From Promethearchaeota archaeon (GTDB lineage Archaea > Asgardarchaeota > Lokiarchaeia > Sigyniarchaeales > SOKP01), in NCBI GenBank assembly GCA_048938445.1, contig JBHLME010000005.1:654-64653 (forward strand): a stretch of 64,000 nt of DNA, in the 5' to 3' direction. Positions 3,782 to 49,084 of this stretch are shown here, one piece after another. Both the position numbers and the translations under genes were made by a program. Below the pieces are notes generated by a model that did not search any database, was not told the DNA's origin, and saw only the letters and a list, made by a program, of their open reading frames with translations. Numbering within the stretch: position 1 is the first letter of the stretch; each line of letters begins with the position of its first letter.

Positions 3782-3861
3782 CTCATATCCATCTATAATT
3801 TTAATTCACCCAAGACTATCTTAAAATAAAATAAAGGATAAAGATATAAAATAATTTTTGC

Positions 3862-4950: not shown

Positions 4951-5000
4951 TATAATATCAATAAAACTAATTTTTCTTAAAATGATCCATTTAGAATTAA

Positions 5001-5939: not shown

Positions 5940-6140
5940 TTTACTCCTCTTTAAATCATAATATTATTTATTCGAGAATCCTTAAAATAATATTTGCATT
6001 GCGAAAATTAAACTAATAAAATTGATCTTATTAATGTTAAAATTTTAAAATTAAATAAAAGAAAATCTTCATAATTTACTACCGTATTTTTGTTATTTTC
6101 TTTTTTAACAGTTGTTTTTATTTAACATAGGTGTTTAAAT

Positions 6141-19112: not shown

Positions 19113-19355
19113 ATGGTAAATGGAACTGTAAAATGGTTTAATAGCCGAAAAGGTTATGGTTTTATCGCCTCAGAAGAAGGGGCGGACGTTTTTGTTCATT
19201 ATTCTGCCATTAAAGCAGACAACGATGAATACCGTTCATTAAATGAAGGAGATAAGGTTGAATTTGAAATAACTGAAGGTCAGAAAGGCCCACAAGCTAC
19301 TGATGTTGTTGTCACGGAACATGCTCCACGACAACAGAGATCATTTCGTTATTAA
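19113..19355 (+). CDS. csp: cold-shock domain protein
   Basis: [18 protein letters not shown] (RNP1 KGYGFI) and DVFVHYSAI (RNP2). I prefer the internal ATG at 19113 to the track start at 19035, because CSD proteins begin at this motif. Confidence 0.85.
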
Positions 19356-19531
19356 TTAAACAAATTAAACTAATCTTATACCTGAACAAATATATTAACA
19401 AATAATAAGTATGAATTAATATGGAATAAGCTTTAGGGTTTTTCGGATATTATGGATTCTTATTAATTTTTTTTTAATTTTTTACCATATCCATTTAAAT
19501 AGTAGATTATATGAAATTTAATTAGTATTTT

Positions 19532-19960
19532 ATGATTAAGTCATGGGTAGAAATAATGGAAACAAAACAATCAGTTAAATTAAAAAGAGCTAAGGGTATT
19601 GGGGGAGTATTACAAAAGCAGCTCGCACCCCTCGAAACAAACGAAAAATTTCTGGAAAGGTATTCAAATCTAAAATTAACACTTTTATTGAATGCAAAAG
19701 ATTCAAAATATGCCGCTGTTGTAAGATTTAATGATGGCAATATAATGGTTGAATCAGTGAGTAATGCTGACGAAAAAGCATTATCTAAAAAGGTTTTATT
19801 TTGGGATGGAATGCTTAAAACTACCACGCCAATTTTCTTGAAAATTGCTATGGGTGAACTTGGCTTAGGAGCAATGGCAAAAAAAATGATTTCCAGAAAA
19901 ATAAAAGCAAAAGGAATAAAAAATTTACTTAAATTACAAAAAATATTTGCTCTCTTATAG
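19532..19960 (+). CDS. SCP2 sterol/lipid-carrier-like domain protein
   Basis: 142 aa. LTLLLNAKDSKYAAVVRFNDGNIMVE...TTPIFLKIAMGELGLGAMAKKMISRKIKAKGIKNLLKL fits the SCP2 pattern (alkyl-carrier fold ending in G.l...kA...gKlkikG....l.kl). Confidence 0.5.
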   Translation: MIKSWVEIMETKQSVKLKRAKGIGGVLQKQLAPLETNEKFLERYSNLKLTLLLNAKDSKYAAVVRFNDGNIMVESVSNADEKALSKKVLFWDGMLKTTTPIFLKIAMGELGLGAMAKKMISRKIKAKGIKNLLKLQKIFALL

Positions 19961-33721: not shown

Positions 33722-34837
33722 TTAAGATTTCTTAGCTCTAGCTAATTCCGCTTTTTTTTCCATGATTGCTAAGTAAGTATCAGCTGTATTTTTAGGAGGT
33801 ATAATTTCATTATCTTTTTTCTGCAGTTTAATTGCCTCATTTGGACATGTTGGTATGCACACTCCGCATCCAATACATCGATTGAGATCCACTACAGAAA
33901 TGTTATCAATAATAGAAATTGCATTCATATTGCATCGATCTTTACAAATAGCACAGCCGACACATATGTCTGAATCAACTTCTGCAAAAAAATTTGTTGC
34001 AAAAAACTGAGCAGGTTTTTCCAGTTTATTTTGGTTGTGTAAGACATGACAACAACAATCACAGCAACAACAAATACACATTGGTCGCAATGAGTTTCCT
34101 GGTTGAATAACCAATCCAGCATCTTCAACTTTTCTTAATGTATTAAGAGCATCTTCTTTAGATATAAATTCTGCTAAACCTCTTCCCACATAAGCCTCCG
34201 CAGCTCTTCTGAAAGAGAAACAAACTTTTCGCAAATCTGTTTTTTTACAAGGATCTCCAAGAATATCTGTTGATTTTTTACAAATACACTCAGCTACGGC
34301 TATAGAATCACCAGAATTTTCGATAATCTCTCTTAATACATCATAACTTGCTACATTTAGCTCATGATCTATACTCTGCTCAATTGGAATTGTTCGTAAT
34401 TGTGGTATACCAGACTGATTGCACTCTTCCATAAAAGATTCTTCAATATATTGATTTATTTCTTCAATGAAATCTTTATTTAGCCGATTTAATTGATATT
34501 CAAACATTCCAATAATGAGCATGGCATTTGCATAATATTTTACATATTGATCTCCTTCCTTAGTTTCACTATAGTTTATAAGTCCTTTCTCATACATTTT
34601 ATCCAATTTAGATTCAAGGTTCTCTATACTCCAACCTTTTTGCTTAAATCCTCGATATATTTTCTTTAAGGGTTTTGGTATAAAGCTTAATTTTAATGCA
34701 ATTTCTGCATTCTCCGGAGTAAATAACCTCTTTAATATCCGAAGTTCAACACCAGAATCAGTAGTTGGATATCCAATTGGCATTTTATCTAAATGACATG
34801 CCAGTTCCTTATAAATTTCTCGAGTTTTTTCTTCCAT
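33722..34837 (-). CDS. Fe-S protein with poly-Cys motif and C-terminal 2x[4Fe-4S] ferredoxin domain (paralog 2 of 3)
   Basis: 371 aa. Contains CICKKSTDILGDPC, MCICCCCDCCCH (nt 34046-34081), CVGCAICKDRC and CIGCGVCIPTCP. N-terminal helical LRILKRLFTPENAEIA region is shared with 3862..4950. Confidence 0.7.
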   Translation of the reverse strand: MEEKTREIYKELACHLDKMPIGYPTTDSGVELRILKRLFTPENAEIALKLSFIPKPLKKIYRGFKQKGWSIENLESKLDKMYEKGLINYSETKEGDQYVKYYANAMLIIGMFEYQLNRLNKDFIEEINQYIEESFMEECNQSGIPQLRTIPIEQSIDHELNVASYDVLREIIENSGDSIAVAECICKKSTDILGDPCKKTDLRKVCFSFRRAAEAYVGRGLAEFISKEDALNTLRKVEDAGLVIQPGNSLRPMCICCCCDCCCHVLHNQNKLEKPAQFFATNFFAEVDSDICVGCAICKDRCNMNAISIIDNISVVDLNRCIGCGVCIPTCPNEAIKLQKKDNEIIPPKNTADTYLAIMEKKAELARAKKS

Positions 34838-34850
34838 TTCTCAAAACCAC

Positions 34851-36005
34851 TTAATTTCTTCCCGCAATGGTTTTTGTCATTGCTTCATTTGTTCCAACAG
34901 CAGGAATTTTATCAAACTTTTTTACCATGGTCAACGCCTCTTCAGGACAATTATAAGCGCATACTCCGCAACCGATACATCTATCATAGTCTAAAGTGAT
35001 CTTATTTTCTTCTTCTAATTCGCTAATAACGTACATTGGACAAAGATTTATGCATTTTTTACAAAAGATGCATTTATTTGGCTCATATTCTGGTATGAAG
35101 TTTGAATTTGCCACGAGACCTGGATCATTAAATTGACTAAGACCACGGAGCATGATACAGCAGTCCCTATCACAGTTACACATGAAGGTAGATTTCTCTT
35201 GTATGTTTTGAGTTGTATGTACTAATCCCGCTTTAGCAGCTTCACTTAATGTTTTAAGCACTTCTTCTTTTGTGAGTTCCCTCCCAAATCCATTTTCAAT
35301 AGTATAATCCGCCCATGAATTAAATGTAACGCAAACATTAATCGGATATTTATTCACTGGCTCTCCTTTATTATATATCTTCATGTGGGTTCGGCATGCA
35401 CAATCCATTACAGCAACTCTGCGAGCTTTTTCTACGAGATTTTTAGCTTGCTCGAACGGAAAAATGTCATTTTTAACAACTTCGATGTCTTGTTCAATTT
35501 CAATGAGTTTACCCTTTCCTCTACTAACTGTTTCTTCAATTGCCTTCTGATCTACCAAAACTCTCATGAATGGGTATTTTGAACTAAACACTTTTGTAAG
35601 ATTGCCCTGATCATAGTATTTCTCATATTCATTTGTAAAGACCATTAATGTCTCATTTTCTTCAGCAGCAGCCCTCTCATGATTTGAAAAATATAATTCA
35701 AATAAACCTGGTACTAATGGAAACATGGAATATGTCGTATTTTCACCTTTACCTGCTGAGAATAATCGTTGAGTCCGAGCCATTTCCTCTATAATTGGCT
35801 TTATTTCATCAACTGGACGCTTGAGTTTACGTGCTATTTTCTCAGGCTTGAAACGATCTAGATATGGTCCATTAAATGTTAATAATATATCAGCCTCTTC
35901 TGAGTTATATAAAGTTTCAAGGATTTTTCTCATTTCTTCTGTCCATATGACTCCCATTTTTTGTGCTATTTTTTCATATTTATCAACCATTTTGTAATTA
36001 ACCAC
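34851..36005 (-). CDS. related Fe-S protein (paralog 3, reduced Cys motif) with 2x[4Fe-4S] domain
   Basis: 384 aa. Contains CACRTH...C, MCNCDRDCC (nt ~35154-35180), CIFCKKCINLCP and CIGCGVCAYNCP. Lies 13 nt upstream of paralog 2. Confidence 0.65.
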   Translation of the reverse strand: MVNYKMVDKYEKIAQKMGVIWTEEMRKILETLYNSEEADILLTFNGPYLDRFKPEKIARKLKRPVDEIKPIIEEMARTQRLFSAGKGENTTYSMFPLVPGLFELYFSNHERAAAEENETLMVFTNEYEKYYDQGNLTKVFSSKYPFMRVLVDQKAIEETVSRGKGKLIEIEQDIEVVKNDIFPFEQAKNLVEKARRVAVMDCACRTHMKIYNKGEPVNKYPINVCVTFNSWADYTIENGFGRELTKEEVLKTLSEAAKAGLVHTTQNIQEKSTFMCNCDRDCCIMLRGLSQFNDPGLVANSNFIPEYEPNKCIFCKKCINLCPMYVISELEEENKITLDYDRCIGCGVCAYNCPEEALTMVKKFDKIPAVGTNEAMTKTIAGRN

Positions 36006-36113: not shown

Positions 36114-36890
36114 TTGGCTAAAAATGAAGATTTTATTTCAAAAATTGATGAAAAATTTGAATTTCTTAACAATCGAATAACATTCCTTCAAGATCTAATC
36201 TTAAATATGAAAAATGAATTTGATCTAATTAATAGAACCAAGATTGATAATCAATGTATAACCGAACTTACGGATTTATCAGAGAATAATCTAGATCACT
36301 TTTTAGCTGAACGACCATCAGATTGTAAATTATTAGAAAAATGTACAACCTTCGTAGAGAAAACTACAATGAAAGTATTAAATATATATTTGAAAAAAGG
36401 AATAAATCCTGCTCAAGAACTATTGAACTCTTATATTAATTTCAGTGAAAATTATTTAGAAACAGGTAAGTGCAGTGATAAAACCTGTATGGAAAATGTA
36501 ATAAATGGGTATAAATCTCTACAAGACATTTTAAATTCAAAAAAATTAATCACCGATGAGATGACAGCTAATTTATTTAGTAAAAAACACCTATACAACA
36601 TCATTGATGGAAATGAAAAAGAAGATTCTAAACTGCTAACGCCTTTATCAAACGAAATAAGAATAAAAATTTTAAAAGTTGTAAGCAAGGGAGGCACATA
36701 TTATTCACAATTAGAAAGAGAAGTAGGTATTAAGGGAGGAAGTTTTCATTTTCATTTAGATAAATTAGTTGAGGGAGGCTATATAATTCAAGAGGGTGAA
36801 AAGGGTCCATATATTGCTACTATTAATGGTTTAAAAGCTTTGCAATTCCTTTTTGAGTTAAAGAAGCACTTTTTACTTTATCAAAATTGA
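36114..36890 (+). CDS. ArsR-type winged-helix regulator with long N-terminal Cys-containing extension
   Basis: 258 aa. The C-terminal LSNEIRIKILKVVSKGGTYYSQLEREVGIKGGSFHFHLDKLVEGGYIIQ is an ArsR/SmtB-like HTH. Divergent from the Fe-S gene pair. Confidence 0.65.
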   Translation: MAKNEDFISKIDEKFEFLNNRITFLQDLILNMKNEFDLINRTKIDNQCITELTDLSENNLDHFLAERPSDCKLLEKCTTFVEKTTMKVLNIYLKKGINPAQELLNSYINFSENYLETGKCSDKTCMENVINGYKSLQDILNSKKLITDEMTANLFSKKHLYNIIDGNEKEDSKLLTPLSNEIRIKILKVVSKGGTYYSQLEREVGIKGGSFHFHLDKLVEGGYIIQEGEKGPYIATINGLKALQFLFELKKHFLLYQN

Positions 36891-37035: not shown

Positions 37036-38001
37036 ATGAATTATTTTTTAAAACCTCATAGTCTTGATATCACAAAACTAATTGAAAATCATCGTGGAAA
37101 AAAAATAGAAGAATTATTTCCCGACTATAAAATTATTTCAAATACAATGGGCCAATTTATTAAACTTCTATGGGATCTCGATGATTTTCCTCTAGATTAT
37201 GATTTATTAAATACCAAAAAAAATTTACTATATAATTTGAAAACCGTGTTTAATATAGGGGGATCAATTGAAAATAGGTTAAGAAATAGAGGTATAAGGA
37301 CAATTAATGATTTAAAACATAGTTTAAGATATAGAACCTCTGCAACTGAAGTTTTACAAGCAATTAAGAAGAAAAACTTTAAAAATCTTATGGAAAATCG
37401 ATATATCTGTGATTTAGATGTTGTATTTTGTTTTAACTTAGAAGATTTTTTATTTATCGATATTGAAACCCTTGGAATATATAATAGTCCAATGTTTATG
37501 GTAGGGATTGGATATTTCAGTAATCAAAAATATAAGATTCACATTCTTTTTGCCAGAAATTTAGAAGAGGAAATAGCTATATGTGAACACTTGAAGAATA
37601 AAGTCTTGCCAAGATTCAAATGTTTTGTTAGTTATAATGGAAAAAGTTTTGATATTCCTTTTATTGCTAACAGATTTTTATATTTTTTTGATGAAAATCC
37701 TATGATTTCTTCCGACCAAATACCATATAAAAAAAGTAATACAATATATCATCATGTAGATTTGTATCATAACTGTCGCCGAAAGTTTAAAAATGAATTT
37801 GAAAATTTCTCATTAACAAATATGGAAGAAAAACTCTTAGGATTCTTAAGAATCAATGATATACCAAGTGAATTAATGGGCGTATGTTATCGTAAGTATC
37901 TGAATGATCCAAATAGATATGCAGGATTAATAAAGGAATGTATTGAACATAATTATTATGACGTGTATTCTCTCCCACTCATTCTTAAAAAGCTACTTTA
38001 G
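37036..38001 (+). CDS. RNase H-fold 3'-5' exonuclease-like protein (YprB-like)
   Basis: 321 aa. Has an HhH-like LRNRGIRTINDL, then FIDIETLG (ExoI DxE), YNGKSFDIPF (ExoII) and HNYYDVYSL (ExoIII). Confidence 0.6.
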   Translation: MNYFLKPHSLDITKLIENHRGKKIEELFPDYKIISNTMGQFIKLLWDLDDFPLDYDLLNTKKNLLYNLKTVFNIGGSIENRLRNRGIRTINDLKHSLRYRTSATEVLQAIKKKNFKNLMENRYICDLDVVFCFNLEDFLFIDIETLGIYNSPMFMVGIGYFSNQKYKIHILFARNLEEEIAICEHLKNKVLPRFKCFVSYNGKSFDIPFIANRFLYFFDENPMISSDQIPYKKSNTIYHHVDLYHNCRRKFKNEFENFSLTNMEEKLLGFLRINDIPSELMGVCYRKYLNDPNRYAGLIKECIEHNYYDVYSLPLILKKLL

Positions 38002-38108
38002 ACTTTATAGATGAAAAATAAGCGAAAATCTTAAGTAAACGAATTAGTATATCATAATAAAAAAAAATTAATCATCTTCATCTATTTAAAAATTACATTT
38101 AATTTAAC

Positions 38109-39284
38109 ATGCAATTAGGCGGGCTTATAAAAAAAGAATTTGGCAGGATAAGAAGTGACACTCGAACATTAATGCTGTTGTTTGTAATTCCCTTGCTTTT
38201 AATAGTGATTTTTGGTTTAACGACTGGAGGGGGTCCCACCAAGTTTTTCACGGCAGTAATCATAACTAAGGACAGCATGCCATGTGAAGGAAGCATGTCT
38301 ACAAATGCTACTTATGATGCAACATTTATATCCGTAGTAAGGGATAATTGTTCTCAGTTTGGTTTTTATAATGCTTATAACAGCACTTCAGACGAAGAAT
38401 TTAAAATGCATTATAATATTGGATTAGCCCTTCTAAGAAGTGATATTATTGATGCAGTAATTATTTTACCTGAAAACTTCACTGAAATTATTGAAAACAT
38501 AACATCTGGTGATCCATCTATTAAATCAGTAAATCCTTATATCCTATATATTATTGATGGAACAGACTCACAAGCTTCTAAGGCTATAGATTTAGCAATT
38601 CAAGAACCTATAATGTTATTCAGATTACAAATTGGATTAACAGAAAATCTTACAACGATGATACCTTCTTTAGAATATTCAGTTCCATCTTGGGAAAGCC
38701 AAATGTTAAATTTTGCTCTTGGAATGATGTTGCCTATAATTATTATTGGCACGACAATGAATTTAACATCTTTAAGTATAGTTTCTGAGGGCCCTCTTCC
38801 AAGAATGATGCTAACTCCAACTGCTAAAAATGAAATCATGGTTAGTAAATTAATTGCAAATGTTGTAATTATGGTTCTTCAATCTACAGAAATATTTGTA
38901 ATGACTTCTTTTTTTGGATTATATTCTTTGGGTTCGTTATTTGATTTGTATTTCACAATGCTTTTAACAGGATTGTGTGGTGTTTGTATAGGATTATTTA
39001 TTTCTTCACTAGCAACAACAGAACAAGTTGCTAATCAAATGTACTTGATATTTTTTATAGTCCTCATGGTGTTTTCGGGATCCTTCTATGATAGTGGGAG
39101 CTCTTCAGCAATGTATAATATTTCTAAGCTTTTCCCTCTAATACATTCAAGTGGATTAATGGTGGATGTGACTTTAAAAGGATTACCCCTTGATATTACT
39201 GCTGTGTTAAGCCTTATAGTAATAAGCGCTTTCTATCTTTTCGCAGCATATTTCATTTATCGATTTAAAAAAGTGGAGGTTTAA
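38109..39284 (+). CDS. ABC-2 type permease (1 TM + large extracytoplasmic loop + 5 TM)
   Basis: 391 aa. LIKKEFGRIRSDTRTLMLLFVIPLLLIVIFG start, a sequon-rich loop of about 160 aa, then five C-terminal helices. Confidence 0.75.
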   Translation: MQLGGLIKKEFGRIRSDTRTLMLLFVIPLLLIVIFGLTTGGGPTKFFTAVIITKDSMPCEGSMSTNATYDATFISVVRDNCSQFGFYNAYNSTSDEEFKMHYNIGLALLRSDIIDAVIILPENFTEIIENITSGDPSIKSVNPYILYIIDGTDSQASKAIDLAIQEPIMLFRLQIGLTENLTTMIPSLEYSVPSWESQMLNFALGMMLPIIIIGTTMNLTSLSIVSEGPLPRMMLTPTAKNEIMVSKLIANVVIMVLQSTEIFVMTSFFGLYSLGSLFDLYFTMLLTGLCGVCIGLFISSLATTEQVANQMYLIFFIVLMVFSGSFYDSGSSSAMYNISKLFPLIHSSGLMVDVTLKGLPLDITAVLSLIVISAFYLFAAYFIYRFKKVEV

Positions 39285-39288
39285 ATTA

Positions 39289-40515
39289 ATTATTTCAAAA
39301 CAAAAAAAGAAAGGACAAAGATTTTCTTTCAAAAACCAAAAAGCGAGTATTCATAGGCTGATAAATCAAATTAAAAAAGAATTTAGACTACTTTGGACTG
39401 ACAAGTTTAATATTTTCCTTGCTTTAGTATTACCTCCTTTAATAATTTTATTGATTTCATTCATATCTACATCTCAAGCGGGAATTACAACAGTAGATTG
39501 TGTTATTGTATCTTATGATTCAAACACATTTATTAATCCTAATAATTTAACTGAATCTGCTAATGCAAATTATACATTACCATATGTGCAAGCAGTAAAT
39601 CTTTCTGAATATTTAAATCCAATCGAACCTGAAACACTTTTCTTTAATGCTAGTGAGGATATATATGCTCTAGAAAGGGCAAGGGATTATTTGAAAGCAG
39701 GTATAATTAGCATTATTATTGTAATTCCCATAGATTTTTCTGAAATGATATCATGGGGTTTGCCCGGAATTATTTCAGGTATAGTTGATGCTTCAGATAT
39801 TATGTCTATACAAGAGAATATGAATGCAGTTCAAGATTCTGTAAAAATATTTACAAGGGAAAATAATCTAACTCCTCAATTCATACTTAAAGGTATTGAT
39901 GAAATAGCAATACCCTCAACTTTCAGTCCTGGATTTAATACTTTAGTTGTTTTTATTTTACCTTTGTTTTCATTCGGTCTTGCAATGGTTCTTAGTATTC
40001 TTGTTGTGGTTAAAGAAAAACCAATTGCTAGGTTATTGTTGACACCTGTGAAGAGATTTGAGATACTCTTGTCTAAATACGTTACTTATGCAACAATATT
40101 AACAATACAATCACTATTATTGATATACATGTCAATTACCCAAGGCCTTTATTGTGCAGGGAGTGTAATTGATTTATTTATTGCATTATTTATACTTGGT
40201 TTTACAGGATTAGGATTAGGTTTATTTGTTTCTAGTCTTTCTAAAACGAAAACTGAAGCAAATCAATATTTCTTCATGCTTTTCATTCTAATAATCCTTT
40301 TAAGTGGTTTATTTATCCCAATAGATTCAATGCCAATATATCTACAATTCATTGCTTGGTTACTACCACTGAGTCATGCAAATCCCATGATTAATGGAAT
40401 TTTAACCAAAGGTAACTCTGTATTTGGATTTCATTTTTATTGGTTATTAGGTATAGGTATCTTTCTTTTCATACTAAGTTTTATAATATTTCAAAGAAAA
40501 CAATATGAGGCCTAA
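39289..40515 (+). CDS. ABC-2 type permease, second copy; start uncertain
   Basis: The track starts at TTG 39451, but the frame is open from 39226. It encodes HRLINQIKKEFRLLWTDKFNIFLALVLPPLIIL, which parallels the N-terminus and TM1 of the first permease. There is no ATG/GTG/TTG there. ATT 39289 sits 8 nt after GGAGGT (39275-39280). Confidence 0.65.
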   Translation: MISKQKKKGQRFSFKNQKASIHRLINQIKKEFRLLWTDKFNIFLALVLPPLIILLISFISTSQAGITTVDCVIVSYDSNTFINPNNLTESANANYTLPYVQAVNLSEYLNPIEPETLFFNASEDIYALERARDYLKAGIISIIIVIPIDFSEMISWGLPGIISGIVDASDIMSIQENMNAVQDSVKIFTRENNLTPQFILKGIDEIAIPSTFSPGFNTLVVFILPLFSFGLAMVLSILVVVKEKPIARLLLTPVKRFEILLSKYVTYATILTIQSLLLIYMSITQGLYCAGSVIDLFIALFILGFTGLGLGLFVSSLSKTKTEANQYFFMLFILIILLSGLFIPIDSMPIYLQFIAWLLPLSHANPMINGILTKGNSVFGFHFYWLLGIGIFLFILSFIIFQRKQYEA

Positions 40516-40523
40516 TATCAAAA

Positions 40524-41525
40524 ATGACTGTGAAATCTAATAAAGTAGTCGTTGAAATAAACAATTTAAATGTAAAATTTGGAAAGAAAAGAGTCGTTAA
40601 AAATGTTTCATTATCAGTAAGGTCAGGGGAAATAATTGGAGTGTTTGGAATTTCAGGTGCTGGTAAAACCACTATGATTAGAGTATTAACTTGTCAAATC
40701 AAGAAAAAAAATTGGTTTGGAGATGTAAAGGTTACGGGAAGATCTCCAGCAAGAAAAAAAAATCACTCAAAGATCTTGAGTAAAATTGGATACGTTCCAC
40801 AATTAGAAGAATTAAATTTATATTATGATTTTAAGCCAATCGCTAATATTGACACGTTTGCTTCTATATATGGAATGGATGTCAAGGAGGCTAAAAAGAT
40901 TGCAGAGAATCTCTTTACAATATTAGACATACCTGAGGATACATGGAAAAAAAAGCTTAGAAAAATGAGTGGTGGGGAAAAAAAAAGAGTTTCAATGGCA
41001 TTAGGACTAATTCATCAACCAGAAATCTTATTTTTAGATGAACCTACTACGGGTGTGGATGCATATAAGAGATACTCAATACTAAGTTATTTAAAAAAAT
41101 TGAACAGAGAATTAGGAACCACAATGTTCATTATAAGCCATGATATGGAATGTTCTCTTGTTTGTGATAAAGCAGCAATAATGCGTGATGGGTCATTACT
41201 CGAGTTTGGAAAACCCGCAGATTTAATAGCTTCACTTCCCAGTAATGGGATAATTGCAACTTTTGCAATTGAAGGTATTAACGAGCAAAAAATTGACCTT
41301 ATAAGAAAGTTTGAACCTGTTATTAATATCATTAGAGCAGGAAATGACGTTATTGAAGTTTTATTAGAAGATTATGAAAAAAATATTTCAAAATTAATTG
41401 AATTCATGATTAAGGAGGATTTAAAAATAAATTCCATGTCTAGAGAAACAGCTACATTTAGGAGATATTTTCAAATCCGAGTTCAAGAAGAAGAAGAAAA
41501 AGAACGAGCATTGCTAGATGAATAA
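40524..41525 (+). CDS. ABC transporter ATP-binding protein
   Basis: 333 aa. Walker A GISGAGKTT, signature MSGGEKKRVS, Walker B ILFLDEPTTGVD, H-loop IISHD. Extra C-terminal domain of about 100 aa. Confidence 0.9.
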   Translation: MTVKSNKVVVEINNLNVKFGKKRVVKNVSLSVRSGEIIGVFGISGAGKTTMIRVLTCQIKKKNWFGDVKVTGRSPARKKNHSKILSKIGYVPQLEELNLYYDFKPIANIDTFASIYGMDVKEAKKIAENLFTILDIPEDTWKKKLRKMSGGEKKRVSMALGLIHQPEILFLDEPTTGVDAYKRYSILSYLKKLNRELGTTMFIISHDMECSLVCDKAAIMRDGSLLEFGKPADLIASLPSNGIIATFAIEGINEQKIDLIRKFEPVINIIRAGNDVIEVLLEDYEKNISKLIEFMIKEDLKINSMSRETATFRRYFQIRVQEEEEKERALLDE

Positions 41526-41599
41526 ATAAAATAATAAAAAATAAATATAAGAGGTAAAATGATAAAAAAAAAGAAAAGCATCTAAATAGGTGAGATTTT

Positions 41600-44500
41600 A
41601 TAAAACTTAAATCAAATATAAAAAAAGTAAACTCCCGTATTAAGGAAATTTTTAAAGTAAGTCCAAAGTTTAAGAAAAAAGTTAAGCTTTCAGTAATTAT
41701 CTTAATTCTTTTTTTAATTCCTTTAATTGGAATGATACTAGTTAATATTCCATATATTTCATATTTTTCACCTGAGGAAGTTCATAATTATAAAGATAAC
41801 ATGTATATTTTTTCAAATTCTCATAAAAATCCCATTTCAGGGCTATTTATTGAACCAGAAATAGATATCAATTTCCACATTATAGACGCTATAAATTGGA
41901 CTGATTTTAATCCTACTTTATTCAATTTGATAGATCCCAGAAATAATCCTTATATGGAAAATAAGCCATTTTTCTTCTTAGATTATCTTTTTGGTAAACA
42001 AAATAACGATGGGTCATTCTCAGATATTGGATATTTAGGTAACATGTTCTCAACCTATGAAGTCGTTCAAACAATAAATCTCCTTAATGATACTTTTATA
42101 AATCCTACTCAGAAACAAGATGAAATTGATAAGATGATTCAATTTGTTAATAATTCACTGGATAATGATCCTGTTTATGAAAATAGCTCAGGATTTAAGT
42201 TAAATTCATTTTCAATGAGCCCAGATATTATTTCAACGAGTAATGCTATAGCATTGATAAATAATTTTTCGGTACCTGGAATTTTAAATAATGAGAACAT
42301 ATCTACTTATATTAATAGTTCAAGAGTAGCTGGTGGATACAGCTTAGACTCTCTGACATTCACTCCAGATCCAGAAAGTACATATTATGGTATCGAAGCG
42401 TTTTTAAACATGAATATGACATATAATTCAGGAGATTTAATTACATCTTGGGGATATTTCAGTTCATTGTATAATAATGAAACAGGTGGATTTTCAAGCT
42501 TACCGTTTAATGCTTCAGATGTTCAATCAACGTTTTATGTTATTTCTTCAGTTGAACGTCTAGGATTACCACCTCTTTTATACTATAATGAGAACAAAAC
42601 ATTAGAATTCATTCTAAATTGTTCAAATTCTGATGGTGGATTTGGTTTATTCATAAATGATACTACTTCAGATTTTAAGTCTGGATGGGCAGCGATGAAA
42701 TCACTAACACTTCTTGAAAAAATATCTGATTTTAATTCATCTCAAATAGATTCAATAAACCAAGTGCGGGAAAAATACTATTATTGGCTTTCAGAGTACC
42801 AAGCTTCTAATGGATTATTTGGACATATTACAATTGAATCAAATTATTATGGAGTGTTATCAGCAATTCAATATTATCCTTCAAGTTTTTTAAAATATAT
42901 CGATGTTCAGAATATCTTTAACTATATTAATAGTTGTTATTCTTTAGAAGATGGTGGATATGCCAACAGGCCTGGACTGAATTCTAGTCTATACGCAACA
43001 TATTTAGCAATAGAGATGTACGATATTTTTTCTCACTATTTTGATGATTTGGTGCTTCATAACAAAACCGCAACAAGAATTTACTTAGCATCATTACAAA
43101 ATAGCGATGGAGGTTTTAAAATAGGTATTGACATAGATGATTTATATAAACAACTAGGTTCATTTGCATTTATCATTACTTCATTAATTAATTCAAATAT
43201 TTCTACGGTTGAAAGTACTTATTGGGCAATTGTTTCTTTAGAAAAATTAGATGCTCTCTCTATGATCGATGAAAAAAATTTTACTCATTGGATTAGATCA
43301 TGTCAAAATTCAGATGGTGGATTTGGACTCTTCCTAGGATTTACTTATAGCGATATAGTCTCAACTTATTATGCTTTACATCTTTTTAAATATTTTAACA
43401 GTGAACCTATATCTAAAATTCAATCTATTTCTTTTTTAAAAAATGCTCAACAGTCTGATGGAAGTTTCTCACCATTACCCACGCTTTCAATACTTGGCCT
43501 AGAAATAAGTTTATTTACAACAACATATATGGCTGCTAAGGCTTTGTATGATTTTGCTTATCAAGCAGAAGATATTCAGGGATTTTTAGGGTGGTATGAA
43601 CTTTGTATTGATAATAATACAGGTGGTGTCGGAGATTATCAAGGATTTGGTGGTGATTTAAGAAATACTCCATATGGTATGATTATAATTGATGATTTGA
43701 GATATGATAGGGCTTTTGATCCTGAACCTTGGACAACTTTATTTATGAGAATTATAATTTTAGAATTTTTAATAATAGCATTTTTTATAGCATATAACAC
43801 TGTAAATAAAGTAAATACGATATTATATAAAAGAATTAAAAAGGCTTTTCGAATTACTGATAAATTAGATATAACCTACCTCAAAAGATATCCTGCGATA
43901 CACTGTGAAGATTTGAGTATATATGCTGGTAGAAAATTAATTGTTAATTCAATGTCTTTAACTTTAGAGCATGGTGAAATTTTAGGCGTTTTAGGGGAGA
44001 GCGGTGCGGGAAAATCTACCTTTGTGAAAAGTTTACTTGGAATGCGTAAATTTTCTGGAATAAACCAAGTATATGGCATGGATGTAAAGAAAAAATCAAA
44101 AAAGATGAGACCAATATATGGGTATGTACCTCAAGATTTAAGTAAGATTTATCAAGACTTTACTACCTACCAAAATATCTTATATTTTGCTAAACAATAT
44201 GGTCTAAGTGAACGAGATATAAGAAGAAAAGCTAAAAGAATTTTACGCAGTTTAGAAATTGAGGATAAAATGCATCAGCAAGTAAAAAATTTGTCTGGTG
44301 GTCAAAAAAGGAGAGTAAGCATTGCAATTGGATTAATTCATGACCCCGTAATTGTTTGGATGGATGAGCCGACTTCTGGATTAGACCCAGTAGTTCGTGA
44401 AAATTTATGGCACGCATTAACGAAAATAAATGAAGAATTTAACACTACTTTGATAGTAATCACACATTACCCTGAAGAATCACGTTTTTGCAATAAAGTA

Positions 44501-44836
44501 GCAATTTTTGGGAGAGGGAGAGGTATGATTGATTTTGGTACCCCTCAAGATCTATTATCTCAATTACCTGGAGGTGGAAGAACCATTGATTTAAGCTTTA
44601 GTGAAGTACAAATAAATGCTATAAAAAGGCTCGAAGCTATTGAAGGGATAGATAAAGCTTTAGAAAATAAAGCTAGTTTAGAATATTCAATTCTTTCCAA
44701 TTTAAGATTACGTGAATTAATTAGTAAAATTGAGCTTGAATTTGGTTTGAGTTCAATTCTAGAAATAAAGCAATCAGAATCAAAGATGGAACAATATTTC
44801 CGTTATAAAGCAATGGAAGTTCCAAAAGAAGAATAA
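41600..44836 (+). CDS. extracytoplasmic prenyltransferase/terpene-cyclase-type alpha/alpha toroid - single TM - ABC ATPase fusion
   Basis: First ATG is at 41732, but the upstream in-frame KFKKKVKLSVIILILFLIPLIG signal anchor has no canonical start (ATA 41600 lies after AGGTGA). About ten DGGF-type repeats (NSDGGFGLF twice, EDGGYA, QSDGSFS ...). TM WTTLFMRIIILEFLIIAFFIAY. Walker A GESGAGKST, LSGGQKRRVS, VWMDEPTSGLD. Confidence 0.8.
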   Translation: MKLKSNIKKVNSRIKEIFKVSPKFKKKVKLSVIILILFLIPLIGMILVNIPYISYFSPEEVHNYKDNMYIFSNSHKNPISGLFIEPEIDINFHIIDAINWTDFNPTLFNLIDPRNNPYMENKPFFFLDYLFGKQNNDGSFSDIGYLGNMFSTYEVVQTINLLNDTFINPTQKQDEIDKMIQFVNNSLDNDPVYENSSGFKLNSFSMSPDIISTSNAIALINNFSVPGILNNENISTYINSSRVAGGYSLDSLTFTPDPESTYYGIEAFLNMNMTYNSGDLITSWGYFSSLYNNETGGFSSLPFNASDVQSTFYVISSVERLGLPPLLYYNENKTLEFILNCSNSDGGFGLFINDTTSDFKSGWAAMKSLTLLEKISDFNSSQIDSINQVREKYYYWLSEYQASNGLFGHITIESNYYGVLSAIQYYPSSFLKYIDVQNIFNYINSCYSLEDGGYANRPGLNSSLYATYLAIEMYDIFSHYFDDLVLHNKTATRIYLASLQNSDGGFKIGIDIDDLYKQLGSFAFIITSLINSNISTVESTYWAIVSLEKLDALSMIDEKNFTHWIRSCQNSDGGFGLFLGFTYSDIVSTYYALHLFKYFNSEPISKIQSISFLKNAQQSDGSFSPLPTLSILGLEISLFTTTYMAAKALYDFAYQAEDIQGFLGWYELCIDNNTGGVGDYQGFGGDLRNTPYGMIIIDDLRYDRAFDPEPWTTLFMRIIILEFLIIAFFIAYNTVNKVNTILYKRIKKAFRITDKLDITYLKRYPAIHCEDLSIYAGRKLIVNSMSLTLEHGEILGVLGESGAGKSTFVKSLLGMRKFSGINQVYGMDVKKKSKKMRPIYGYVPQDLSKIYQDFTTYQNILYFAKQYGLSERDIRRKAKRILRSLEIEDKMHQQVKNLSGGQKRRVSIAIGLIHDPVIVWMDEPTSGLDPVVRENLWHALTKINEEFNTTLIVITHYPEESRFCNKVAIFGRGRGMIDFGTPQDLLSQLPGGGRTIDLSFSEVQINAIKRLEAIEGIDKALENKASLEYSILSNLRLRELISKIELEFGLSSILEIKQSESKMEQYFRYKAMEVPKEE

Positions 44837-44860
44837 TAAATTCCGTAAAGAGGTTATGTT

Positions 44861-46576
44861 TTGACAGAAATTTCAAGAGAAAAGGAACTGGAGATGCTTC
44901 GTTTGAAAATAATTGAAGCTATTCGATTCTCTACACGATATTGGATGATATTCAAAGAGAAAACATTCGGTATTGCCACAATCTTGGATTTAATATATAA
45001 AAAATCATATATTGAAGTTTTATTTTTTACAAATTATGATGTTATGGAATTAGGAGTACCACTTTTAAAAATATATACCCCAATTGAAACTGAGGTAAAC
45101 TTAAATGAGATTCTCCTTGAACCTGATTTTGATAAGGATGGCCTCATAAGCCCCGTAAAAATTATTAAAAAAGTAAATCAATTAATAAAGAAAGAATTTG
45201 AGCATCATATCGCTGTATTGGATGAAGAAGTTAGATTACTTAACGAAAAATATGAAAATTATGAATTAAATGATATTCCCTACAATAGAGAAATAATTAT
45301 TTTTTTCCCCACGTTTACTTTAGATTTAAAAATAAACTTTGAAAAATATCCTCTCATTCCCAATATTTCATTTTCAGATGAATTATCTAAAATTATCACG
45401 ATAAATGAATTTCTTGAAACTGAAATGTTTATAAATTGGAATCCCGAGTACCCTATTCATGTTATTCATATTATAGAGGAATTAATTAATATTATTACGA
45501 AACGTTTAAAAATAAAAAATTTACCTGAGGATTCTCAACATCTTTTAATTAAAAAAGTATCAGTTGGAAATAATATTAAAAACCTTTCATTTAAAATGCT
45601 AAGAGGAACGACAATTGGAATTCATTATGAGGAAGATCAATTTAAATCCAATATTGGTGAAATTTCAAGTATTTTAGACTTTTTTGAAGCAATTATGGGA
45701 ATTAACTCTTCTTTTTCTGGAGTAATCAAGGTTTTTGGCAAAAATATTCAATTAGCCTTAAAAAGTGAATTGGATAAAATCACAATGATTAGCACAAATA
45801 TCGATTCGAATATAAAAAATGTAACAGTAAAAAAAATTCTCAGCAAGGAATTTGACTTAAAATCTGATTGGAAAGATTTTAAAGAGCAAATGGGAAGTAT
45901 AAATAAAAAAATAGGCATAAATTTCATTAAAGGGGAATTAGGATTCAAGACTCTAAATCGAAATTATAAAAAAAATATTATAAATCAAATTTTAAAAGTT
46001 TCTGGATTATTGGATAGAAAAAATGATAAAATTAGAGATTTAACTCTGATAGAAACATTATTATTTTCTATTTCACGAGCGATAATAAGTTTACCACATA
46101 TAATTTTATTATCAGCTCCTAATATTAATTTTGGAAGATCTGAAATTGAAAAGTTTAATAAATGCATAAAAAAATTTAAAAAAGATTATAATGTCTCTTT
46201 TATAATTCATGGAACTAAAGATATTCTTTCTATATGTGATCAAATCATTAATATTACTCCGGAAATGACTGAAATTGGATCAATCGATGATTATTTACAA
46301 AAATTACCACAATCTGGAGAAATTCTTACGATTGAATTAAGCCGTCCAAATTTAACAGCTATAAAGCAAATGTTAAAAATGGATTCTGTTATTTTTATTG
46401 AAGAACGAAGGAATGAGAAATATAAACTGTTTATTCAAGAAAATCCTGAAAAGATTATCATATTTTTATTAGAATTATTTGGTTCTAAACTATATAATTT
46501 TCGACGTTTTAGAGCAACTTTGGGAGAATATTTAGAATTTTTAGAATATAAAAAATATGGAAGGATATATAAATGA
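44861..46576 (+). CDS. degenerate (catalytically dead) ABC ATPase-like protein with unique N-terminal domain
   Basis: 571 aa. The C-terminal half is collinear with an NBD, but Walker A is replaced by GIHYEEDQFKSNIG, the signature by LTLIETLLFSISRA and Walker B by IILLSAPN. H-loop-like IIHGT is retained. Confidence 0.55.
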   Translation: MTEISREKELEMLRLKIIEAIRFSTRYWMIFKEKTFGIATILDLIYKKSYIEVLFFTNYDVMELGVPLLKIYTPIETEVNLNEILLEPDFDKDGLISPVKIIKKVNQLIKKEFEHHIAVLDEEVRLLNEKYENYELNDIPYNREIIIFFPTFTLDLKINFEKYPLIPNISFSDELSKIITINEFLETEMFINWNPEYPIHVIHIIEELINIITKRLKIKNLPEDSQHLLIKKVSVGNNIKNLSFKMLRGTTIGIHYEEDQFKSNIGEISSILDFFEAIMGINSSFSGVIKVFGKNIQLALKSELDKITMISTNIDSNIKNVTVKKILSKEFDLKSDWKDFKEQMGSINKKIGINFIKGELGFKTLNRNYKKNIINQILKVSGLLDRKNDKIRDLTLIETLLFSISRAIISLPHIILLSAPNINFGRSEIEKFNKCIKKFKKDYNVSFIIHGTKDILSICDQIINITPEMTEIGSIDDYLQKLPQSGEILTIELSRPNLTAIKQMLKMDSVIFIEERRNEKYKLFIQENPEKIIIFLLELFGSKLYNFRRFRATLGEYLEFLEYKKYGRIYK

Positions 46577-46587
46577 GTTGAATAATA

Positions 46588-47355
46588 ATGATAAAAAGTA
46601 TATATATAATGCTTGATAACGGAATTTTACTATTTTCAAAAAATTTCGTGGAAATTAAATATGATAATAATTTACTTATTGGTTTCTTTGCCTCAATAGC
46701 TAATTTTAGCAGGGAAGCTTTAAAGAGTGTTGTAAAAACCGTAGATCTTGGCGAAGAGAATAAGTTAGTTCTTCATCCTCGAACTAAAGAAAAGTTATTA
46801 AGTGCTGCTATTGTAAGTACGACAGATAATAATTCTCTTATAATAGATATTTTAAATAACCTAATGTTAGATTTTACGCATGAATTTACTTCATATGATA
46901 ATCCTGATAATATAGATAAAATGACGGCAGAAAAATTAGTTTCAGATAATTTACGAAGGAAAATCTTTCCATCGATTCCAAAACTTATACTGGTTTCAAT
47001 CGCATTATTAACTCCTCTCTTATCAATATTAATTGTTTTAAGCATTTATATAACGAATACATTTCAAAATTTATTCGAACACGTTCAACCTGCTTTAATT
47101 TTATACACGTCCATAACACTTTTGTTATTAACATTAGTTCCCAATTTAATATCTGGGTTTTTAGCGCCGGATAGACGTTATGCATTATTCAATACATTTG
47201 TGATCATCATTATTGAAGTAGCTGTTTATATTGCTTTTGTGGAAAGACTTTTTATACAAATAACATTGGCAAATCTTCCTATAAATTTCATTCTTTCTCT
47301 AGCTTCTGCATATTTTGGATTGAGATTATCTTCACGCAAATACTTAAAAAAATAA
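46588..47355 (+). CDS. longin-like domain protein with four C-terminal TM helices
   Basis: 255 aa. MIKSIYIMLDNGILLFSKNF...LLIGFFASIANFSREAL...KLVLHPRTKEKLLSAAIVSTTD...LIIDILNNLMLDFTHEF has the beta-beta-alpha-beta-beta-beta-alpha order and an AP-sigma/longin-like N-terminus. Four hydrophobic helices follow. Starts 11 nt after the previous stop. Confidence 0.5.
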   Translation: MIKSIYIMLDNGILLFSKNFVEIKYDNNLLIGFFASIANFSREALKSVVKTVDLGEENKLVLHPRTKEKLLSAAIVSTTDNNSLIIDILNNLMLDFTHEFTSYDNPDNIDKMTAEKLVSDNLRRKIFPSIPKLILVSIALLTPLLSILIVLSIYITNTFQNLFEHVQPALILYTSITLLLLTLVPNLISGFLAPDRRYALFNTFVIIIIEVAVYIAFVERLFIQITLANLPINFILSLASAYFGLRLSSRKYLKK

Positions 47356-47392: not shown

Positions 47393-49084
47393 GTGATTAT
47401 AATGGAAGAAGAATTAATCGCAAAATTATTTGACCAAGGTTGGAATTATAAAAATAGAAATAATATTCTTGAACGATTAAAAAGTAATACCTATAATATT
47501 ATAGTAATTGGAGGAGGTATAACTGGAGCCGGAGTTGCAAGAGAAGCGTCATTAAGAGGCCTTAGTGTAGCTTTAGTTGACATGCAAGATTTTGCTGCAG
47601 GGACATCCTCCCGTAGTTCAAAATTAGCTCATGGTGGAATCCGGTATCTTGATCAAGGAGAAACAGAATTAGTTGAAGAAGCTACCACTGAAAGAAATTG
47701 GCTTTTAGCACATTTGTCTCATTTAATAAGACCTATTCCATTTCTCTTTGGTTCATGGAAAGGAGGTTGGAGAAAAACTGTGATTAAAGGTGCAATTAAA
47801 ATTTATGATTTCCTTAGTGATACTAACCAAATATTTAAAAATTCAAATAAAGGAAAATGGTATGACGCTGAAGAAATAATTGAACTTGAACCTGAAATTA
47901 ATACAGAAGGCTTTTTGGGTGGGGGTATTTACTATGATAATAATGTTGATGATGCTAGATTAACACTTGAAACCATTAAAGAAGCTGTAATTCGAGGCGC
48001 AGATGCTTTAAATTATTGTAAAGTAATTGATTTTTTAAAAAAGGATGGAAAGATCGTAGGAGTAAAATGTAAAGATTTAGAACAAAATAATGAGTTTAAT
48101 ATAAATGGAAAATTGGTTATTAATGCTACAGGGATTTGGACTGATGAGTTAGTAGAACTATATCCTGTAAACGTGCCTGATCCTGTTATTCGTCCAACAA
48201 AAGGCGTTCATATAACATATAGACGTGAACATGTAGGAAATAAATTAGCTACTATTATTAAATCGATCACGGATGGTCGAGCGTTTTTTGTACTCCCAAG
48301 GGGGGATTTTACTGTTATTGGAACGACTGATACCGACTATACAGGTGATTTAACAAATCCATTCTGTGATAAAGAGGATGCAGATTATTTAATTACCTCA
48401 GTAAAACACTATTTTCCAAAAGCACGATTAGAATATGACAACATCATATCAACTTGGGCGGGAATTAGACCCTTAGTTATGCAAAAAGGCAAATCTGAAA
48501 GTGAAATTTCAAGGAAACACCTCATATTTTTCTCTGATGATAATTTATTAACTATTACCGGTGGAAAATTAACAACTTTCAGGAAAATGGCTGAAGATTT
48601 ATTTAAAGAAATAGAAATTAAGAAAATTTTTCCGATTATAGATAGAGAAGAAAATTTTTCTAAGCAAAAATATATCATTAGCCTTGATAAAGAAATGTGG
48701 TTAGATGAAGTCAAAAAGAGTGGGATTAATTTAGAAGATAACATTATTAAATTGTTGTACCAACAATATGGGCGGGGTTCCATTGAAATATTAACCATGA
48801 TTAAAAACGACCAGAGTTTAAAAGAGAGAATCATTGAAGATAATGACTTTATAAAAGCAGAAATATTATATATTTTGAGAAATGAATTAACTCCTCATTT
48901 AATTGATATTTTCTGCCGCCGTACTGAAATGGCTCTCTTTATTCATCATAAAATGCAAGTACAAGCAGCAAATATAGTAGCAGAGTTAATGGCTTCTGAA
49001 TATAATTGGAATGATGAAACCAAAGAAAAAGAAATAGAAATATATTCAGATTATGTTAAGAAAACTATTTCTTTCTTGAAATAA
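47393..49084 (+). CDS. FAD-dependent glycerol-3-phosphate dehydrogenase (GlpA/GlpD family)
   Basis: 563 aa. VIGGGITGAGVAREASLRGLSVALVDMQDFAAGTSSRSSKLAHGGIRYL is the family N-terminus. The C-terminal alpha-helical domain is present. Confidence 0.8.
   Translation: MIIMEEELIAKLFDQGWNYKNRNNILERLKSNTYNIIVIGGGITGAGVAREASLRGLSVALVDMQDFAAGTSSRSSKLAHGGIRYLDQGETELVEEATTERNWLLAHLSHLIRPIPFLFGSWKGGWRKTVIKGAIKIYDFLSDTNQIFKNSNKGKWYDAEEIIELEPEINTEGFLGGGIYYDNNVDDARLTLETIKEAVIRGADALNYCKVIDFLKKDGKIVGVKCKDLEQNNEFNINGKLVINATGIWTDELVELYPVNVPDPVIRPTKGVHITYRREHVGNKLATIIKSITDGRAFFVLPRGDFTVIGTTDTDYTGDLTNPFCDKEDADYLITSVKHYFPKARLEYDNIISTWAGIRPLVMQKGKSESEISRKHLIFFSDDNLLTITGGKLTTFRKMAEDLFKEIEIKKIFPIIDREENFSKQKYIISLDKEMWLDEVKKSGINLEDNIIKLLYQQYGRGSIEILTMIKNDQSLKERIIEDNDFIKAEILYILRNELTPHLIDIFCRRTEMALFIHHKMQVQAANIVAELMASEYNWNDETKEKEIEIYSDYVKKTISFLK

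Follow-up and report, generated by a model that had tools for sequence, protein, structure and literature searches.

Analysis of a 64,000-nt stretch of the genome of a Promethearchaeota archaeon (contig JBHLME010000005.1; G+C content of about 29%), hereafter the window, revealed a cassette of six consecutive genes at positions 38109–47355. According to open reading frame (ORF) listing and Pfam/NCBIfam scans, all six genes lie on the plus strand. They encode two ABC-2 permeases (perm1 and perm2), a canonical ABC ATPase (NBD1, for nucleotide-binding domain), a fusion of an alpha/alpha-toroid to a second canonical ATPase (toroid–NBD2), a pseudo-ATPase with an N-terminal UBC/RWD-like region (P5), and a longin-type protein with four transmembrane segments (TMs) (P6). 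Judging from sequence comparisons, the conserved unit consists of these six genes and is specific to Asgard (Loki-type) archaea, apparently occurring nowhere else. The transporter core of the cassette is familiar; new and lineage-restricted are the toroid–NBD fusion, the UBC/RWD–pseudo-NBD protein and the longin–4TM protein. With a confidence that falls a little short of even, we propose that the cassette encodes an ABCA-like extruder, which would place an isoprenoid-based membrane molecule onto the surface-exposed toroid, with P5 and P6 acting as regulatory or scaffolding subunits.

Full-length homologues of the toroid–NBD fusion formed more than 120 clusters (42–66% identity), all from metagenome bins of Loki-type or other Asgard archaea, and the distribution of P5 and P6 homologues was equal to that of the fusion. 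A profile scan with P5 over one genome per species (185,579 species) detected 77 loci, every one of them in a bin of Promethearchaeati (Asgard archaea). Most of these loci are labelled Promethearchaeota, the current name of Lokiarchaeota, and a few carry the unchecked labels Hod-, Hermod-, Odin- or Thorarchaeota. A pattern-based scan of the 77 titles turned up no cultured Asgard strain. The six window proteins were then placed on all of the loci. Upstream sequence of 7.3 kb or more was available in 50 loci, and 47 of these contain perm1, perm2, NBD1 and the fusion; P6 followed P5 wherever the downstream sequence sufficed (67/67). All 47 complete loci were co-linear, and the order was kept in the most distant relatives (34–44% identity; 42–44% for the fusion homologues) and in three other lineages. 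The gene calls for NBD1 and the fusion, as well as those for the fusion and P5, overlap or abut in most of the homologous loci inspected. A first-pass annotation of the window had described a tight co-conserved operon with all genes on the plus strand, and the ORF listing and the comparison of gene neighbourhoods bear this out. It had counted seven genes; the co-conserved unit comprises six, as the GlpA-like gene that follows P6 is lineage-specific.

The three exceptions (L024, L030 and L062) lack both permease genes upstream of NBD1. From NBD1 onward, the DNA of L030 and L062 is about 94% identical to that of the complete locus L032. The ~4 kb upstream in L062 are AT-rich (20–35% G+C) and contain almost no ORFs of at least 100 amino acids (aa).

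Literature searches found no description of the cassette, and the papers retrieved that mention Asgard transporters or longin domains do not cover it. The source names of the proteins are generic ('ATP-binding cassette domain-containing protein', 'prenyltransferase/squalene oxidase repeat-containing protein' and 'hypothetical protein'). The first-pass annotation had allowed for the toroid–NBD protein belonging to an already characterised transporter family; NCBIfam matches stayed below their cut-offs and the literature was silent, so that no such family emerged. PADLOC gave generic ATPase cross-matches for NBD1 and NBD2 only, and none for the other four proteins; on this result, the cassette was rejected as an anti-phage defence system.

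Both perm1 (38109–39284; 391 aa) and perm2 (39289–40515; ~408 aa) matched the Pfam family ABC2_membrane_3 (E-values, 3.7e-19 and 1.8e-22) with scores of 69.5 and 80.4 bits, respectively, against a cut-off of 31.6 bits, which identifies them as members of the ABC-2 permeases (PF12698/PF01061). Neither permease gave a Pfam match to FtsX-type (PF02687) or MacB_PCD domains. Hydropathy analysis of perm1 revealed TM1 at residues 20–38, an extracellular loop of ~160 aa, which carries a cluster of N-x-S/T sequons, and five further TMs. Perm2 has the same layout, with TM1 at residues 42–60, a loop of ~160 aa and then five TMs, in agreement with the 1TM–large loop–5TM arrangement given to both permeases in the first-pass annotation. 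In the PDB sequence search, the sole relatives of perm2 were ABCH-like 'ABCG23-like' transporters of insects (E-value, 9e-12).

NBD1 (40524–41525; 333 aa; Pfam ABC_tran, E-value, 9e-24) contains the canonical motifs GISGAGKT, MSGGE, ILFLDEP and IISHD, followed by a C-terminal regulatory-type domain of ~90 aa. Its top PDB sequence matches are ABCA3, ABCA1 and ABCA4 (5e-43 to 2e-37); ABCA7 is also among its solved relatives, and TM_1403 matches it over the full length. In NCBIfam, the best matches of the system were DrrA/DrrB, NodI and RbbA-type exporters (DrrA-like for NBD1), every one of them far below the family cut-off. By its sequence, the system belongs to the ABC-2 (type V) class. The ABC_tran scores of NBD1 and NBD2 are 85 and 92 bits, and the motifs of both are intact. 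Since the two ATPases are both catalytically canonical, a Perm1–Perm2–NBD1–NBD2 heterotetramer with two competent ATP sites would be the natural core of the system, to whose assembly the co-linear gene order lends indirect support only. The first-pass annotation had held that three NBDs for two permeases fit no classical transporter. With an ordinary heterodimeric type-V core, the third, dead NBD is an accessory pseudo-enzyme and poses no stoichiometric puzzle.

The fourth gene, which ends at 44836, encodes the fusion protein (~1078 aa). Only two TMs were predicted in it by hydropathy. The Lys/Arg-rich N-terminal tail, predicted to be cytoplasmic, and TM1 (residues 30–48) are encoded at 41600–41743, the ectodomain of ~660 aa at 41744–43735, and TM2 (residues 713–731) at 43736–43792, followed by a Lys/Arg-rich linker and by NBD2 with its C-terminal domain (43892–44836). 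Pfam detected Prenyltrans (E-value, 1e-36) in four stretches of the ectodomain and then ABC_tran (8e-26). The toroid carries six or more PFTB-type repeats of the QNxDGGF kind, and its PDB sequence matches are RabGGTase-beta (5e-12) and FTase-beta (2e-6). N-x-S/T sequons are dense between the two TMs (19; 2.9 per 100 aa) compared with the NBD part (2; 0.6 per 100 aa). Together with the two TMs and their positively charged flanks, which follow the positive-inside rule, this sequon density places the toroid outside and NBD2 inside the cell, as the first-pass annotation had assumed; the toroid would thereby sit beside the loops of the permeases. The motifs of NBD2 (GESGAGKS, LSGGQ, VIVWMDEP and VITHY) are canonical, and NBD2 is the best-conserved part of the fusion family.

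The family-invariant residues of the toroid are those of the repeats themselves (QNxDGGF, W, and STY type). Two residues of RabGGTase-beta that we take to be Zn ligands of prenyltransferases, the Asp and Cys of the 'DVC' motif, were aligned by HMMER to Ser and Tyr in the toroid; the His position of the triad falls outside the alignment, and no family-wide Cys/His pair was found beyond the repeat Cys. The DxDD motif of class II cyclases is present in the window protein only and is not conserved across the family. Pfam and locus mapping revealed no gene for a prenyltransferase alpha-subunit-like protein in the cassette. The toroid was thus rejected as a prenyltransferase or cyclase, given that catalytic residues, cytosolic location and alpha partner are all missing, and is best read as a non-catalytic binding module.

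P5 (571 aa; 44861–46576) gave no match in the Pfam scan, and its only matches in NCBIfam and the PDB sequences were weak. An AlphaFold2 (AF2) model built with 48 homologues (pLDDT 84) revealed that residues ~226–571 (45536–46576) adopt an NBD fold followed by a C-terminal regulatory-type domain. Foldseek against the PDB matched P5 to TM_1403, MetN, ABCA1/3/4/7, NosF and MacB (E-values, 1e-13 to 1e-11). At the positions of the Walker A, signature and Walker B motifs, the family columns read RGQSIGIxY, L[ST]xL[DE] and IIMFS[IM]P, respectively, and all three motifs are lost in the window protein and in all of the sampled homologues. Since the motifs are degenerate across the whole family, the loss of catalysis goes back to its ancestor and has been kept since. 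The earlier view that one NBD-type protein of the cassette is dead thus extends to the whole family.

The most conserved part of P5 is its N-terminal region, residues 1–225 (44861–45535), modelled by AF2 as two alpha-beta(3-4)-alpha modules. A search with the profile of this region against 1.84 billion (1.84e9) representative proteins returned 55 matches, the distant ones of which (library-wide E-values, 6e-11 to 9e-4) are confined to module 2, many of the proteins being matched at two to four places. Eight of the ten distant matches that were scanned carry Pfam UQ_con, RWD, UBC_like or FANCL_d1, several of these being weak or below the cut-off; RING matches were also seen among the ten, which are mostly multi-repeat proteins. 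In six of the ten, the stretches matched by the P5 profile overlap the UQ_con or RWD region. These results suggest that module 2 is a UBC/RWD-like domain, by a link that is transitive and holds for module 2 only; the first-pass annotation had overlooked this part of P5. Its invariant residues E161, Y163, P164 and P167 lie in the motif NFEKYPLxPxFSF, a sequence similar to the YPxxP loop found in UBC/RWD domains. A member-by-member Pfam scan of the P5 N-terminus gave nothing meaningful, and hhalign comparisons with the E2 enzyme UBE2D2 and TSG101-UEV were not significant. ABC proteins dominate the Foldseek matches of P5 among viral structures, and a single giant-virus E2 enzyme at rank 45 (probability 0.77) provides a weak hint. 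The catalytic Cys and the HPN motif of active E2 enzymes are both absent, residues 1–225 containing no invariant Cys. If the homology holds, the N-terminus of P5 would be a non-catalytic UBC variant.

Module 1 contains an invariant P88-D-x-D-x-D-G94 loop (residues 88–94; 45122–45142). The loop is DxDxDG-like and might be a Ca2+ or other metal site; the matches of the P5 N-terminus to calmodulin EF-hand loops in the PDB are not significant (E-values, 0.3–2). In the insignificant hhalign alignment, the loop lies opposite the HPN loop of E2.

P6 (255 aa; 46588–47355) has no match in Pfam or NCBIfam, the longin family included, and the PDB sequence search returned only insignificant K+-channel matches to its TM part. 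The AF2 model (52 homologues; pLDDT 86; pTM 0.76) revealed that residues 1–125 (46588–46962), predicted to be cytoplasmic, follow the order beta-beta-alpha-beta-beta-beta-alpha-alpha, with strands at 4–9 and 14–19, a helix at 27–47, three strands within 51–77, and helices at 82–99 and 111–123. Four long helices come next (46975–47340). The four TMs predicted by hydropathy are all located after residue 130 and display conserved PN..G and P motifs. The top Foldseek matches of P6 in the PDB are the sigma subunits and mu N-terminal domains of AP-1/2/3, zeta-COP, TRAPP Bet5/Trs23 and Sec22b; for these longin matches, the E-value is ~1e-4, the probability 1.00 and the TM-score normalised to the target 0.5–0.72. 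Roadblock/LAMTOR chains match at lower rank. The model therefore supports a longin fold (beta2-alpha-beta3-alpha2) for the N-terminus of P6, as well as the longin–4TM description in the first-pass annotation.

From the parts, their topology, the state of their motifs and their co-conservation, we infer the following assembly, direction of transport, cargo and role of P5 and P6. Binding and hydrolysis of ATP at NBD1 and NBD2 would drive the ABC-2 permeases, which, like the ABCA/ABCH lipid exporters, would expel a hydrophobic molecule from the outer leaflet of the membrane. The cargo would most plausibly be an isoprenoid-based archaeal lipid or a polyprenyl-phosphate carrier. It would enter the permease ectodomains and the tethered toroid, the latter serving as a non-catalytic holder or acceptor. 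P5 and P6, which would not hydrolyse ATP, may dock on the transporter as a regulatory or scaffolding module and couple it to cytoplasmic signals. This proposal is supported by the homology of the toroid to prenyltransferase beta subunits, whose cavity binds isoprenoid diphosphates, and by the fact that the closest solved relatives of the system are lipid-exporting type-V transporters.

Several points weigh against the extruder. The likeness of the NBDs to ABCA proteins tells little about the cargo, ABC-2 systems also export drugs, polysaccharides and ions, and alpha/alpha toroids also bind peptides, glycans and proteins. No consistent link to lipids emerges from the neighbouring genes, among which are two-component genes, an FAD_binding_4 plus CCG pair, and genes for a C13 peptidase and a second toroid protein. 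Loci L024, L030 and L062 suggest that toroid–NBD2, P5 and P6 might work without the permeases, unless these contigs are rearranged.

A single TM helix and a short linker join the toroid covalently to NBD2, which would be unusual for a mere acceptor and would fit mechanotransmission without transport, as in NosDFY or FtsEX. ATP cycles would then reshape the surface toroid via TM2 of the fusion and the permease loops, and the toroid would act on an extracellular target, e.g., a surface protein or a component of a partner cell that it would hold, release or activate. NosF is among the structural matches of P5, and the ABC-2 system NosDFY is known to power a partner protein in the periplasm; in addition, the second toroid protein (25 loci) and the C13 peptidase (18 loci) downstream of related cassettes hint at a surface-protein context. 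However, each permease has a complete ABC-2 domain of six TMs and a large loop like that of true exporters, catalytic motifs are absent from the toroid, and the cassette includes no conserved gene for an extracellular partner. Mechanotransmission of this kind is possible but, in our view, unlikely.

The best NCBIfam matches, DrrA/DrrB, NodI and RbbA-type exporters, would agree with a resistance or target-protection module of the DrrAB/BceAB kind, which exports or dislodges an antimicrobial compound, with the toroid receiving the compound, or the lipid that it targets, at the cell surface and with two-component wiring in many lineages. In the larger clade of loci, a response regulator (21 loci) and a PAS-PAS histidine kinase (15 loci) indeed lie downstream. 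Nevertheless, those NCBIfam scores are all far below the cut-offs, and neither the window nor its subclade has the two-component genes. Moreover, resistance cassettes are usually patchy and mobile, whereas the six-gene cassette is vertically conserved across 77 species, and P5 and P6 would be left unexplained. A resistance module therefore appears rather improbable.

Uptake or scavenging of a corrinoid or isoprenoid, with the toroid as a tethered substrate-binding protein that feeds the permeases for import, is very improbable: some ABC importers do have tethered binding domains and the alpha/alpha barrels of transcobalamin-type proteins do bind cobalamin, but nearly all ABC-2 (type V) permeases export or flip their substrates, the toroid resembles prenyltransferase beta subunits instead of cobalamin binders, and the window contains neither riboswitches nor cobalamin genes, so that the corrinoid role suggested in the first-pass annotation finds no support.

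Within the extruder proposal, a bolder version, which we consider a long shot, would see the cassette as an ATP-driven handler of isoprenoid carriers or membrane lipids at the Asgard cell surface, gated by the longin protein and the UBC/RWD–pseudo-ATPase. Its task might be to extract or reuse polyprenyl-(pyro)phosphate once surface glycosylation is complete, or to provide protrusions with lipid. Longin and UBC/RWD domains are otherwise typical of eukaryotic trafficking and ubiquitin-like signalling, and the system, if so, would connect an ABCA-like lipid transporter of archaea with regulatory modules of a proto-eukaryotic kind.

Two of the six genes lack a canonical start codon at the expected position. 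The canonical ORF of perm2 begins only at TTG 39451, and the first canonical ATG of the fusion is found at 41732; no ATG, GTG or TTG occurs further upstream in frame in either gene. Upstream of each canonical start, the same reading frame encodes an N-terminal TM helix, and homologues from other contigs have the equivalent helix behind an ATG or TTG. Perm2 thus probably starts at ATT 39289, 9 nt after GGAGG, and the fusion at ATA 41600, 6 nt after AGGTGA; these starts are preferred because the canonical ones would drop the TM helix that is kept in all homologues. The unusual codons may be rare starts by which the amounts of the subunits are tuned, or else they reflect errors of sequencing. The public gene call for the fusion (P0001; 1034 aa) uses the ATG and loses TM1. 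With the non-canonical starts, the spacers within the cassette are 4, 8, 74, 24 and 11 nt, followed by 37 nt to the GlpA-like gene. The range of 0–75 nt given in the first-pass annotation is therefore correct if perm2 and the fusion use these starts, and fails with the canonical ones.

A TATA-like box, TTTAAAAA (38085–38092, plus strand), was read from the sequence 24 nt before the ATG of perm1. It is a candidate operon promoter, in which case perm1 would be leaderless or near-leaderless. An Rfam scan of the whole window returned no match, and hence no riboswitch; the sigma-70 and terminator scan, performed with models not suited to archaea, remained at chance level.

In 10 of the 63 loci with a readable site, all of them relatives of the window locus, NBD1 is interrupted just after Walker B, between ...DEPTT and GVDA...; the NBD1 of the window is uninterrupted. 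The inserts are 31, 32 or 34 nt long, contain in-frame stops, and are located in L012 (6355–6385), L020 (6291–6322), L022 (6292–6323), L024 (4358–4388), L030 (4906–4936), L041 (372–402), L051 (6286–6316), L062 (6279–6309), L072 (6375–6408) and L081 (5966–5997). The GVDASKRY codons after the insert appear to be translated, because the differences among the loci are almost only synonymous. A simple split of the gene was rejected, as no in-frame start codon precedes these codons in L012, L030 and L062. Frameshifting was rejected since the insert lengths would demand different shifts, and translational bypass since matching take-off and landing codons were not seen.

The ten junctions share a consensus fold, a bulge-helix-bulge (BHB) motif. 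In the outer helix, the RCC of exon 1 pairs with the GGY codon of exon 2, with a 3-nt bulge on the 3' strand; the central helix of 4 bp is formed by NACY of exon 1 and the 3' end of the insert; and the 5' strand carries a 3-nt bulge (ACA) and leads into an inner hairpin. Compensatory changes were observed in 9 of the 16 pairs, among them the one between the third positions of a Glu and a Gly codon, which are synonymous sites and pair as A-U five times, G-C four times and G-U once. Of all BHB cells, 94% are paired, compared with 17–47% when the partners are slid, and none of 500 shuffles reached the observed covariation score. The archaeal splicing endonuclease cuts at set positions in the bulges, and, whichever of the three lengths the insert has, cleavage at these usual positions would rejoin the exons in frame as Thr-Thr-Gly. 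The insert is thus a candidate BHB mRNA intron of Loki-type Asgard archaea. Gain or loss of the insert is likely to be recent, because it is absent from L032 and present in the near-identical L030 and L062. The only archaeal mRNA introns of the BHB kind found in the literature are those of crenarchaeal cbf5 (PMC2738675). If spliced, the NBD1 insert would extend archaeal mRNA splicing beyond this case.

The gene following P6 in the window (47393–49084, plus strand) encodes a GlpA/GlpD-like FAD-dependent glycerol-3-phosphate dehydrogenase (Pfam DAO and DAO_C; NCBIfam), and its GTG start is preceded, at a distance of 28 nt, by a TATA-like box of its own, TTTATATA. A GlpA-like gene follows P6 on the same strand in 6 of the 77 loci, plus L005, which is on the same contig as L008. 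The combination of GlpA and a 218-aa six-TM protein after P6 (47393–49851 in the window) is restricted to the subclade of the window. GlpA was therefore rejected as a seventh member of the operon, being a lineage-specific neighbour with its own TATA-like box. In most other lineages, genes for FAD_binding_4 (GlcD-like) and Fer4/CCG (HdrD/GlpC/TfrB-like) proteins are found downstream (L006 17507–20551, L004 12141–14086 and about 45 others); this pair was likewise rejected as part of the operon, because its distance to P6 varies from 180 to 6000 nt (median 1.6 kb). In both clades, the gene after the cassette encodes a flavoprotein dehydrogenase.

Other recurrent neighbours were observed in the larger clade: a 191-aa Zn-ribbon-like protein (37 loci), an ADP-forming acyl-CoA synthetase (27 loci), the response regulator (median distance from P6, ~1.7 kb), the PAS-PAS histidine kinase directly after P6 (median, ~118 nt), and, ~5–6 kb downstream, the second Prenyltrans toroid protein (~883 aa) and the C13 (legumain-like) peptidase. 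Examples of these neighbours are found at L026 12646–14226, L053 12395–12772, L014 19065–21713, L062 19717–21219 and L080 2726–3298; all of them are missing from the window. In one lineage (L002/L003), genes for a neutral/alkaline ceramidase-like and an acyl-CoA synthetase-like protein (2740–6025) lie directly upstream of the cassette, and an Arf-like small GTPase (19227–19715) is encoded ~4 kb downstream. Arf-like matches were also seen upstream in L074 and L077, the pattern being inconsistent among lineages. L001 harbours a genuine MacB-type system (MacB_PCD/FtsX protein), which adjoins the cassette as a separate unit. Upstream of the cassette in the window are genes for two Cys-rich Fe-S-type proteins (33722–36005, minus strand), an ArsR/HTH-type regulator (36114–36890, plus strand) and an RNase_H_2-superfamily protein (37036–38001, plus strand), the last of which is syntenic in the subclade of the window.

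Asgard archaea are the closest known relatives of eukaryotes, and much is still to be learnt about the way in which they form and reshape their membranes and protrusions. The cassette joins an ABCA-like transporter core with a surface domain of an isoprenoid-binding type, in a combination strictly conserved in Loki-type Asgard archaea, and P5 and P6 appear to be built from UBC/RWD-like and longin domains, which organise trafficking and signalling complexes in eukaryotes. To our knowledge, pseudo-ATPase subunits that serve as dedicated regulators of ABC transporters are rare. Should the cargo be a lipid, the cassette would offer a concrete entry into Asgard membrane biology.

Compared with known systems, the toroid has PFTB-repeat sequence and a predicted fold class in common with prenyltransferase beta subunits and squalene-hopene cyclase; in contrast to the former, it is extracellular between two TMs, is about twice as long, and has no gene for an alpha subunit beside it. 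P5 module 2 is linked to UBC/RWD/UEV domains at the profile level and the P6 N-terminus to longin-domain proteins at the fold level, and membership in these sequence families is undetectable for the P5 N-terminus and P6. The tandem of P5 is fused to a pseudo-ABC ATPase, and the longin domain of P6 to a four-TM domain. As in BceAB-BceRS, a histidine kinase and a response regulator follow the cassette in 15–21 related loci, but BceB is FtsX-type and BceS is an intramembrane-sensing kinase, whereas the kinase of the cassette loci is a cytoplasmic PAS-PAS protein absent from the window.

The first-pass annotation had placed the cassette closest to the mechanotransmission systems MacB, LolCDE and FtsEX (type VII). 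The principle that cytoplasmic ATP hydrolysis moves an extracytoplasmic domain is possibly shared, but these systems have four-TM FtsX-type permeases with a MacB_PCD-type domain, whereas the permeases of the cassette are six-TM ABC-2 proteins; having no FtsX-type permease, the cassette falls outside their class. NosDFY resembles the cassette in that its ABC-2 permease works with a large extracytoplasmic protein and its NBD is followed by a C-terminal regulatory domain. It differs in that NosD is a separate beta-helix protein, NosFY is homodimeric, and there is no pseudo-NBD or longin partner. ABCA1/3/4/7 and the ABCH-like transporters likewise have one TM, a large ectodomain and five TMs in each membrane half. 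As in the cassette, the NBDs of ABCA proteins are followed by a regulatory-type domain, and the P5 model itself matches ABCA chains of NBD plus R-domain. Unlike in ABCA proteins, the four core parts of the cassette are separate polypeptides and a 660-aa toroid is tethered to one of the NBDs; to this core, the cassette adds two proteins without an ABCA counterpart, a pseudo-NBD with a UBC/RWD-like module and a longin–4TM protein.

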